A stretch of 64,000 nt of DNA from Escherichia coli (GCF_050320075.1 NZ_CP190018.1), one strand, 5' to 3'; numbered from the stretch's first letter, positions 48,017 through 49,474 are shown. Translations and numbers: made by a program. The notes: generated from the letters alone by a model not told the origin.

Positions 48017-49474
48017 CTATTTTTTAGCATTCGCATCCAGCGGGGCGGCATAACAACTGTAAGAAAAACATTCGCTGGAATGATTGGCGATATCTTTAAA
48101 GTTGCTTTCAGCAACCCCCTCGAACATGAGTACCGTTCTGGACAACTCTCCGTTGTCATTTATATGTGGAAAATCAAATTGTGTACTGAATCGCCATACA
48201 TCTGTCTTTTCTGGCTCGCTGTTCACAGAGATACGTCGATGGAAGACTCCTCCTGAAAACGTGCGCCAGAACAATTGTTGATCAAAATCTTGTAATATCG
48301 CACACTTGGATGCTATTTGACGTAGTAAACCTGCATACCGTGGACTGCCATTACGAGCAACATTATACAAACCCTGACTAAAAGCATCAAACAAACAATA
48401 GATATGATCACTAGTGAAAAAAGGTCTTAATTTTTTTTGTTCTTCATCGCTGTAATCCAGGAGCATCTCATTGATTTCTTCCGGTGAGAATTTTAAGACA
48501 AAATTATCCTCAGGATTTGTTTCTTTCTTGTTTTTTTCACTATTCTTCTCCTCAATGGTCTTCGCATTTTGTTTCGCAATTTTTTTCGCATTTTCTTCCT
48601 CAGTTTTTTTCGCAATTTTTTCCGCAATTTTTTCCCGAGTTTTTGGTTTTAGACTAACACCATCGATGTCAACCGGTGTTGTTTTCAGATCTCTCTGCGC
48701 GTCTTCCAAATTTGTCTTATAGAGATCGGGTACTTTATCGGCAGATAAGTATCCGGATGAAGATATCTGGTGTGTTCGCATGGGGGGCTGTTCACAAAGC
48801 ATCGAGGCTATATCGTCTTTAAACTCTTTTACATTAAAGTTATCGGCATTAACCTTCCCTGCTATAAACCCCGCATCGGCAATTTTCTTCTCTAATTGTT
48901 TTGTACGTTTAGAATAATAAGCGTTGTTATCATAAAACTTTTCAAGAAGGGCCCACTCCTCAAGTTGCCTTATGTGATTTTTCAACTGTTGATGATCTAT
49001 TTTATATTCATGTGTACTAGAATCATTTTGGTTGCAGGGGTTACAGATTTTTAAGCATAATTTTCCATCATAATTATTATCTATGGTATCAGTGAAAATA
49101 TAGGACACTTCAATACTCTGCCCGTTCTTATCAGTCATCTCATATGACCATTGCCCCGTTCGTTTCGCATTCTTAATGAGTTCGATGGACTCTACAGGAC
49201 AACCATGAAGAATGGGCAGAATTTTATCAGGATGCTTAATGAGTAAAATTATTATATTTACAATATTTGAAAAGAAATCTTTGCTATTTTTTATTTCATC
49301 GATTTTTTCCGCTGAAATGTTTACTAAGTTTTCATTTCCGGAAATGAAAAGCAATTTGCCATGGGGGCTTTTTTTAAATTGTTCTTCTGTTTTAGAAAAA
49401 ACATCCTCTTTAAAAGGTGGCAACTCAGTACCAGTAATAAACGGTTTTAATAAATTCGAATTTGAAATTGTCAT
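48017..49474 (-). CDS. Hypothetical protein, AT-rich orphan; possible secreted effector
   Basis: 485-aa ORF in AT-rich DNA with no K-12 counterpart between acpH and malZ; Ser/Thr/Asn-rich N-terminus (MTISNSNLLKPFITGTEL); central K/E-rich repeat (KIAEKIAKKTEEENAKKIAKQNAKTIEEKNSEKNKKE); higher-GC C-terminal domain. No family assignment possible by eye. Confidence 0.55.
   Translation of the reverse strand: MTISNSNLLKPFITGTELPPFKEDVFSKTEEQFKKSPHGKLLFISGNENLVNISAEKIDEIKNSKDFFSNIVNIIILLIKHPDKILPILHGCPVESIELIKNAKRTGQWSYEMTDKNGQSIEVSYIFTDTIDNNYDGKLCLKICNPCNQNDSSTHEYKIDHQQLKNHIRQLEEWALLEKFYDNNAYYSKRTKQLEKKIADAGFIAGKVNADNFNVKEFKDDIASMLCEQPPMRTHQISSSGYLSADKVPDLYKTNLEDAQRDLKTTPVDIDGVSLKPKTREKIAEKIAKKTEEENAKKIAKQNAKTIEEKNSEKNKKETNPEDNFVLKFSPEEINEMLLDYSDEEQKKLRPFFTSDHIYCLFDAFSQGLYNVARNGSPRYAGLLRQIASKCAILQDFDQQLFWRTFSGGVFHRRISVNSEPEKTDVWRFSTQFDFPHINDNGELSRTVLMFEGVAESNFKDIANHSSECFSYSCYAAPLDANAKK

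Follow-up and report, generated by a model that had tools for sequence, protein, structure and literature searches.

Does a short in-frame repeat change the length of the protein that it encodes from strain to strain and, if so, do such changes act as a switch or are they simply tolerated? This question is raised by a gene of the ECs0454 family in Escherichia coli, which lies on the minus strand at positions 48017-49474 of a stretch of 64,000 nucleotides (nt) of genome NZ_CP190018.1, hereafter referred to as the window. The open reading frame (ORF; GC content ~0.33-0.40) encodes 485 amino acids (aa) that can be divided into an N-terminal region (1-275), a repeat or linker (276-330) and a C-terminal region (331-485); its orthologue in O157 Sakai is ECs0454. 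An earlier note on this stretch had pointed out a degenerate tandem repeat inside the gene and had predicted in-frame, whole-unit length polymorphism between strains. In our assessment, the repeat is very likely an in-frame coding minisatellite that undergoes infrequent whole-unit changes, which represent tolerated, near-neutral variation of a spacer rather than a programmed switch.

The repeat array and its variation between strains

The array consists of ten degenerate 12-nt units in frame with the gene at positions 48515-48634 on the minus strand, as delimited by Tandem Repeats Finder (TRF), shuffle controls and a parse of the units in 13 alleles. The units cover aa 281-320 and encode EKIA EKIA KKTE EENA KKIA KQNA KTIE EKNS EKNK KETN. 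The plus-strand units quoted in the earlier note, ttcgcaattttt, ttcgcattttct and ttccgcaatttt, are present in the window, and the Lys/Glu-rich peptide KIAEKIAKKTEEENAKKIAKQNAK that was quoted along with them corresponds to aa 283-306 of the ORF. An in-frame repeat of ~12 nt therefore exists as described, but the extent assigned to it, 48540-48660, overshoots the array by ~26 nt on the 5' side of the coding strand and omits the two most degenerate distal units, both of which are included in the in-frame parse. TRF detected a period of 12 nt at 48561-48633 (6.1 copies, 80% matches, score 90), together with harmonics of period 24, 36 and 48 spanning 48530-48644. The self-match of the segment reached 0.70 for a lag of 12 and 0.68 for lags of both 24 and 36, compared to 0.2-0.5 for other lags. 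Shuffle controls were chosen because of the very high T content of the plus strand in this segment. Dinucleotide shuffles of the segment yielded a lag-12 self-match of 0.37 +/- 0.044 (z = 7.5), and the observed value was attained by none of 5000 such shuffles, by none of 2000 when the best of lags 4-40 was taken for each shuffle, and by none of 5000 sequences in which the codons of the coding strand had been shuffled. Since the codon shuffles never attained the observed value, the periodicity is not merely a consequence of Lys/Glu codon bias.

The units are not equally variable. The first two form a perfect 24-nt tandem duplication of GAAAAAATTGCG (x2, encoding EKIA-EKIA) at 48611-48634 on the minus strand, and belong to a group of proximal '...TGCG'-type units at 48575-48634 on the same strand that precede KQNA. 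According to a DNA alignment and unit maps, there are five of these units in the window allele and two to six across the DNA alleles examined, whereas the number of the four distal, more degenerate units is constant in these alleles. The ORF measures 1422, 1446, 1458 or 1470 bp in complete genomes, and in an alignment of ten repeat-bearing alleles all insertions and deletions fall within the array, each being a multiple of 12 nt. In order to cover a larger sample, the linker was measured as the distance between the conserved anchors VDIDGVSL and LLDYSDE in proteins from a collection of 5.8 billion. Among 116 distinct repeat-bearing proteins, eight linker lengths were found, namely 46, 50, 54, 58, 62, 66, 70 and 78 aa, all of them separated by steps of 4 aa or a multiple thereof. 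The predicted length polymorphism was thus borne out, and neither of the two outcomes that would have spoken against it, a lack of computed periodicity and an invariant copy number across orthologues, was observed.

Closely related alleles give an idea of how these lengths arise. The genes of strains EC31 and A287 differ by a single 12-nt unit and are otherwise identical, with no single-nucleotide polymorphisms (SNPs) over 1458 nt. The window allele and that of strain 23CRST032 are eight SNPs apart and differ by the same unit of the EKIA-EKIA duplication as EC31 and A287. The backbone shared by 23CRST032 and the window is ~2.7% diverged from that of EC31 and A287, so that the loss of the same unit on both backbones represents homoplasy. 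In addition, proteins with identical flanks differ in having a linker of 62, 66 or 70 aa, with at least three different units removed, and therefore both gain and loss of units occur. At some deletion junctions we found chimeric units, GAA|AAAATTGCG in strain 142 and GGAAAAA|ATTCG in strain UTME-3, as would be expected for in-register misalignment of neighbouring units.

A neighbour-joining tree was calculated from the 423 flanking residues only, leaving out the linker. On this tree, at least 17 changes of linker length are needed, compared to ~50 if the lengths were distributed over the tips at random, and length is therefore inherited yet repeatedly changing. Given 17 events versus 0.71 substitutions per residue, a change in array length is ~24 times as frequent as an aa change at one codon. 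With textbook mutation rates of E. coli, this would translate into a rate of the order of ~1e-8 per generation, far below the rates of contingency loci. All sampled genomes of the O157:H7 type (11 of 11) carry a gene of 1446 bp, i.e. the array is stable within this clone. The description of the repeat as prone to slipped-strand length variation is hence appropriate with regard to the recurrence of whole-unit changes, but not if it is taken to mean hypermutability, as the rate is modest.

We propose that adjacent, near-identical units would occasionally misalign, most likely by RecA-independent replication slippage or, alternatively, by unequal exchange at short homologies. Each such event would remove or duplicate whole units, and the protein would become longer or shorter by 4 aa per step with the reading frame kept. 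The changes are heritable, recurrent, bidirectional and infrequent.

Repeat-free alleles and the encoded linker

A second class of alleles, termed N (461 aa, e.g. in strain TUM18780), served as an internal control. Its flanks are near-identical (95-100%) to those of the repeat-bearing class (R), and a divergent central cassette at approximately 48275-48755 on the minus strand replaces the repeat by non-repetitive sequence. In a sliding comparison at the N-class locus L010, identity was 0.4-0.8 across gene nt ~720-1200 (~450 bp; nt ~1020-1500 of L010), and 0.95-1.0 in the flanks. The N-class linker, ELKTRRHLADIIHVKCMREKNYTTDQGFELPEEVIHAL, is non-repetitive, and its length from anchor to anchor is 38 aa in all of 118 distinct N proteins. 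Of 31 complete genomes with an N allele, two have a gene of 1387 bp and the other 29 one of 1386 bp, and no variation by +/-12 nt was found. On comparable trees, the R class accumulated 302 aa substitutions and 17 length changes, and the N class 224 and none. At the ratio of the R class, 12.6 length changes would have been expected for the N class versus the zero observed (Poisson P ~3e-6). The repeat itself therefore causes the instability in length. The N class is not rare; a single N protein is present on 730 contigs, which indicates that the repeat-free form is both common and stable. With regard to the origin of the two cassettes, their pattern of divergence suggests either recombination with an unsampled divergent homologue or alternative cassettes that have been maintained for a long time.

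The ratio of nonsynonymous to synonymous substitution rates (dN/dS) is 1.07 in the linker, 0.69 in the N-terminal region and 0.51 in the C-terminal region. Because the value of the linker is ~1, its length variation is best read as tolerated rather than selected. As for the structure of this segment, the unit is a tetrapeptide rich in Lys, Glu, Ala and Ile, and one unit corresponds to approximately one helical turn. In a segment of 45 aa, 53% of the residues are charged, 13 positively and 11 negatively. The hydrophobic moment peaks at 90 degrees, in line with the sequence repeat of period four, and is negligible (0.11) at 100 degrees, for which reason a coiled coil or an amphipathic helix was ruled out. 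Charge pairs at i,i+3 are more often opposite than same (7 versus 3). AlphaFold2, run for each allele with the full sequence diversity at hand, predicted a helix starting at residue 277 in both alleles, extending to residue 303 in the window allele (27 residues) and to residue 293 in the N allele (17 residues), with a local predicted local distance difference test score (pLDDT) of 60-79 (60-76 for the helix of the window allele). In our reading, the linker is probably a tolerant, charged and helical spacer, and the repeat would form this linker between the N- and C-terminal parts of the orphan protein.

Several points weigh against our reading of the repeat as a whole. Opposite and same charge pairs at i,i+4 are equally frequent (8 versus 8), and a classic ER/K single alpha-helix is therefore not supported. 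The AlphaFold2 models are poor overall, with a pLDDT of 41 for the window allele and 40 for the N allele, which we ascribe to the shallow alignment of an orphan protein, and the picture of two domains plus a spacer would accordingly be a weak one as far as the models go. The protein itself is a predicted gene product. The numbers of length changes (17 versus 0) are approximate, as they were counted on distinct protein sequences and on a distance tree of recombining alleles. Furthermore, slippage and unequal recombination would leave an identical footprint, so that replication slippage is the route we infer rather than one that we observed. Finally, neutrality would rest on few substitutions in the linker, with which selection on length would be compatible as well.

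Alternative explanations for the length classes

The last point leads to the alternative that the length of the linker is functionally tuned by diversifying selection, e.g. in an arms race with phage or host, and that variation in copy number is adaptive. A presence/absence polymorphism at a fixed site, as is found for conflict genes, elevated dN/dS values of 0.5-1.1, two deeply divergent central cassettes between near-identical flanks, and the recurrence and homoplasy of the length changes would all be in agreement with such selection. However, the dN/dS of ~1 in the linker is what neutrality predicts, with no excess over 1, and the length does not vary within clones, e.g. among the O157:H7 genomes sampled. 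Nor is a variable spacer a necessity, since the repeat-free class is common and stable. Strain UTME-3 is informative in this respect, as its gene carries both a frameshift and the loss of a 12-nt unit; unit loss therefore happens also in a copy that is already broken, i.e. without selection on the protein. Together with the lack of a match to any defence family, these observations make adaptive length variation unlikely. A broader version, in which the gene is an undescribed conflict gene (e.g. a single-gene anti-phage or host-interaction factor) with the central region as specificity determinant, and in which cassettes, unit changes and frameshifts at A-runs form a selected, diversity-generating arrangement, appears quite improbable to us; the positive evidence for it consists of the presence/absence polymorphism, the elevated dN/dS and the mosaicism of the cassettes.

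We likewise give little credence to the proposal that the gene is a contingency, i.e. phase-variable, locus in which slippage, especially at runs of A6-A8, switches the full-length protein on and off. The coding strand contains ten A6-A8 runs derived from Lys codons, five of which (A6-A7) lie in the array or border it, and frameshifts by a change from A7 to A8 have occurred at two runs in two lineages. The first of these runs lies in unit 9 (GAAAAAAAC on the coding strand; 48531-48537, minus strand) and is A8 in the O145:H28 lineage (L015, L016 and L017), where the resulting +1 frameshift leads to a stop at codon 326 and the gene is labelled 'frameshifted' by the Prokaryotic Genome Annotation Pipeline (PGAP). 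UTME-3 owes its frameshift to an A8 as well. In the O145 strain RM12275-C1, the run is A7 and the gene intact, its sequence being otherwise identical to that of the A8 relatives; this could be either a reversion or a homopolymer error of long-read sequencing. The second run, at gene nt 100-106 (49369-49375, minus strand), has independently changed from A7 to A8 in two N-class genomes, including DSM 103246 (L018), and causes an N-terminal frameshift. The database proteins P0258-P0260 are products of a downstream restart after this frameshift. On the other hand, the 12-nt unit is a multiple of three and cannot switch the frame, and all insertions and deletions of the array are in frame. A7 is short for a phase-variable tract, and A8 is fixed in ~23 of the 24 sampled genomes of the O145 type, the lone A7 genome coming from a long-read assembly, in which undercalls of homopolymers are common. 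In addition, all 39 full-length genes that were sampled have lengths divisible by three. We conclude that the A-runs are mutational hot spots and that the evidence does not show phase variation.

There is a slim chance that the length classes arose by homologous recombination importing alleles rather than by local events in the array. The gene is a mosaic, with the N cassette on R-like flanks, and length is phylogenetically structured, as is evident from the 17 versus ~50 changes on the tree. Recombination, however, would only redistribute variants that had arisen elsewhere, and a one-unit difference is found even between alleles that are free of SNPs or share their protein flanks. The chimeric units at the junctions point to local misalignment, and the same unit was lost on two diverged backbones.

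An equally slim chance remains for the view that the ORF is not a real gene and that the repeat is an AT-rich minisatellite without coding function in a remnant of horizontal acquisition, as might be suspected from the lack of homologues and domains, the high dN/dS, the low-confidence AlphaFold2 models and several independent pseudogenisations. Against this, more than 230 distinct sequences contain an unbroken ORF of 461-501 aa. The share of synonymous variants, 31%, exceeds the expected 21% (p = 0.005), and the 126 segregating changes include no nonsense variant, compared to an expectation of 6.6 (P ~0.001). Moreover, a GGAG Shine-Dalgarno sequence, read from the sequence at 49482-49485 on the minus strand, is correctly spaced 7 nt upstream of the ATG (49474-49472), and PGAP calls a coding sequence in all genomes examined. 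These patterns of variation indicate that the host gene is a real, weakly constrained coding sequence.

Although the region is A/T-rich with homopolymers and metagenomic fragments such as P0127 hop between frames as with read errors, assembly or sequencing artefacts can practically be dismissed as the cause of the length differences, since these are exact multiples of 12 nt, consistent within lineages and found again in hundreds of complete genomes that different laboratories produced on different platforms, and since an array of 120 nt is far shorter than a sequencing read.

The host gene, its chromosomal site and related systems

The preferred reading, a coding minisatellite with tolerated changes in unit number, places the repeat in a gene that had been called an orphan, and this label is correct in a strong sense, as no relative was found outside E. 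coli and Shigella. A profile search against Pfam, NCBIfam, PADLOC, PHROGs and PDB returned only sub-threshold noise produced by the Lys/Glu-rich segment or a Cys pattern, and phmmer, run exhaustively against 1.84 billion cluster representatives, retrieved nothing but the family and its fragments. A scan of one genome per bacterial species revealed no relative either, and among ~15 billion proteins none is detectable outside E. coli and Shigella. The sources of the family members are named as E. coli, Shigella dysenteriae and unnamed isolates of Escherichia or Enterobacteriaceae. The orphan is hence a genuine, taxonomically restricted gene with a dN/dS of 0.5-0.7. In the literature, as far as covered by full text without supplements and subscription journals, nothing relevant was found on ECs0454, the unit sequence or a malZ-linked marker for multiple-locus variable-number tandem-repeat analysis (MLVA).

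Apart from the linker, the protein contains an invariant Cys motif, C-x3-C-x2-C (CLKICNPC), at aa 140-147 (49034-49057, minus strand) in a predicted beta-hairpin, with the invariant residues H90/C92 and H161/H167 nearby. Motif and neighbouring His and Cys residues could be a metal site. A match to the iron-sulfur protein ArrB was rejected as spurious, being sub-threshold and produced by the C-x3-C-x2-C motif. Two further ORFs overlapping the array were rejected as images of the AAA/GAA codons of the gene: a Phe-rich antisense ORF of 83 aa at 48471-48722 on the plus strand and a 'KKLRKK' ORF in an alternative frame at 48493-48627 on the minus strand. Both have a TTG start, lack independent support and are fully accounted for by the main frame.

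In the window, the gene is flanked by acpH, which ends at 47996 on the plus strand and is preceded by queA (46126-47196, minus strand), and by malZ (49662-51479, minus strand). It occupies a segment of 1662 bp (48000-49661; no strand assigned) that is bounded exactly by the stop codons of malZ and acpH, is present in some genomes and absent from others, and has a GC content of ~0.31-0.42 versus ~0.55 in the flanks. In K-12, the convergent stop codons of the two genes are 4 bp apart. Of 5426 complete E. coli genomes, 1127 (21%) contain the ORF, always on the chromosome, in single copy, at the malZ-acpH site and annotated as 'hypothetical protein'; the site is empty in 4295 genomes (79%), and empty and occupied sites together account for 5422 of the 5426. 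Neither a target duplication nor a gene of a mobile element is evident at 48000-49661. Directly downstream of malZ and upstream of the orphan, within the inserted segment, there is a strong hairpin at 49581-49628 on the minus strand, with an outer stem of 11 bp and an inner stem (fold of 49475-49665 on the minus strand: -56.7 kcal/mol, z = -3.8). This hairpin is a plausible malZ terminator in carrier strains, as judged from the predicted fold. A promoter scan was uninformative: shuffled sequences gave more sites, and the intergenic region upstream of the gene, including the stretch between the hairpin and the start of the orphan, gave none. In the O55:H7 strain USDA5905, a deletion (nt 1094-2834 of locus L011) has removed the 3' end of malZ and approximately the first three-quarters of the orphan, and what remains of the two genes are pseudogene fragments.

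The array displays all features that define in-frame coding variable-number tandem repeats (VNTRs) or minisatellites, i.e. periodicity, a unit that is a multiple of three within an ORF, whole-unit variation, and a causal role of the repeat in this variation. Like the coding VNTRs used in MLVA typing, it consists of short head-to-tail units in an ORF whose number varies between strains in whole steps, and slipped-strand mispairing is the presumed origin of both. It differs from them in that its units are few and degenerate (~80% match) and its changes slow, with ~17 events versus ~300 aa substitutions. It would be a poor choice as a high-resolution typing marker. The array is absent from 79% of the genomes, and neither the locus nor the unit was found as a published E. 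coli MLVA or VNTR marker in the full-text literature outside supplements and subscription journals.

Similar spacers are known from other proteins. In Staphylococcus aureus, region Xr of protein A consists of 24-bp repeats that are used in spa typing, and the Ser-Asp R regions of the Clf proteins are spacer repeats. By analogy, the array may be regarded as a comparable in-frame spacer of low complexity with a polymorphic, tolerated number of units, although the array protein has no evident signal peptide, wall anchor or surface localisation and both unit and composition are unrelated. Domain II of TolA is a long, alpha-helical repeat region rich in Lys, Ala, Glu and Asp that spans the periplasm of E. 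coli. The array may resemble it as a repetitive segment rich in Lys, Glu and Ala and as a predicted helix that connects two domains of a protein from E. coli, but is much shorter (~40 aa), contains Ile, Asn and Thr in its unit and lacks a membrane anchor; homology to TolA was not detected in Pfam and NCBIfam, where all hits were below significance, or among the 1.84 billion representatives. With ER/K single alpha-helix spacers, the array has in common 53% of K/R/D/E residues, a predicted helix and the absence of a hydrophobic seam, in contrast to which opposite charges at i,i+4 are not enriched, Ile, Asn and Thr are present and the confidence in the helix is moderate.

Contingency loci of Haemophilus, Neisseria and Campylobacter are phase-variable simple sequence repeats. 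The host gene is like them in that slippage in intragenic repeats would lead to heritable, reversible variation and in that its A-runs gave rise to frameshifts. The array itself is different: its unit is a multiple of three and keeps the frame, its units are imperfect (~80%), and its inferred rate is low, by orders of magnitude. Again unlike contingency loci, the gene has only short A7 tracts, and in one lineage its frameshift has become fixed. The array is thus an ordinary coding tandem-repeat polymorphism and not a fast on/off switch.

For E. coli, this polymorphism accounts for the annotated lengths of 469-501 aa among orthologues of this hypothetical protein, and it means that the length differences at the locus are biological and not assembly errors. 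The array could serve as a low-resolution lineage marker. As repeat-bearing and repeat-free forms of one gene share a single chromosomal site, the locus represents a clean natural experiment on the mutagenic effect of a degenerate 12-nt array, in which only the repeat-bearing form changes its length and the comparison yields a rough relative rate. The host gene is of more interest than the repeat, being a low-GC ORFan of 485 aa that is restricted to E. coli, occurs in two allele classes and has no detectable relative.

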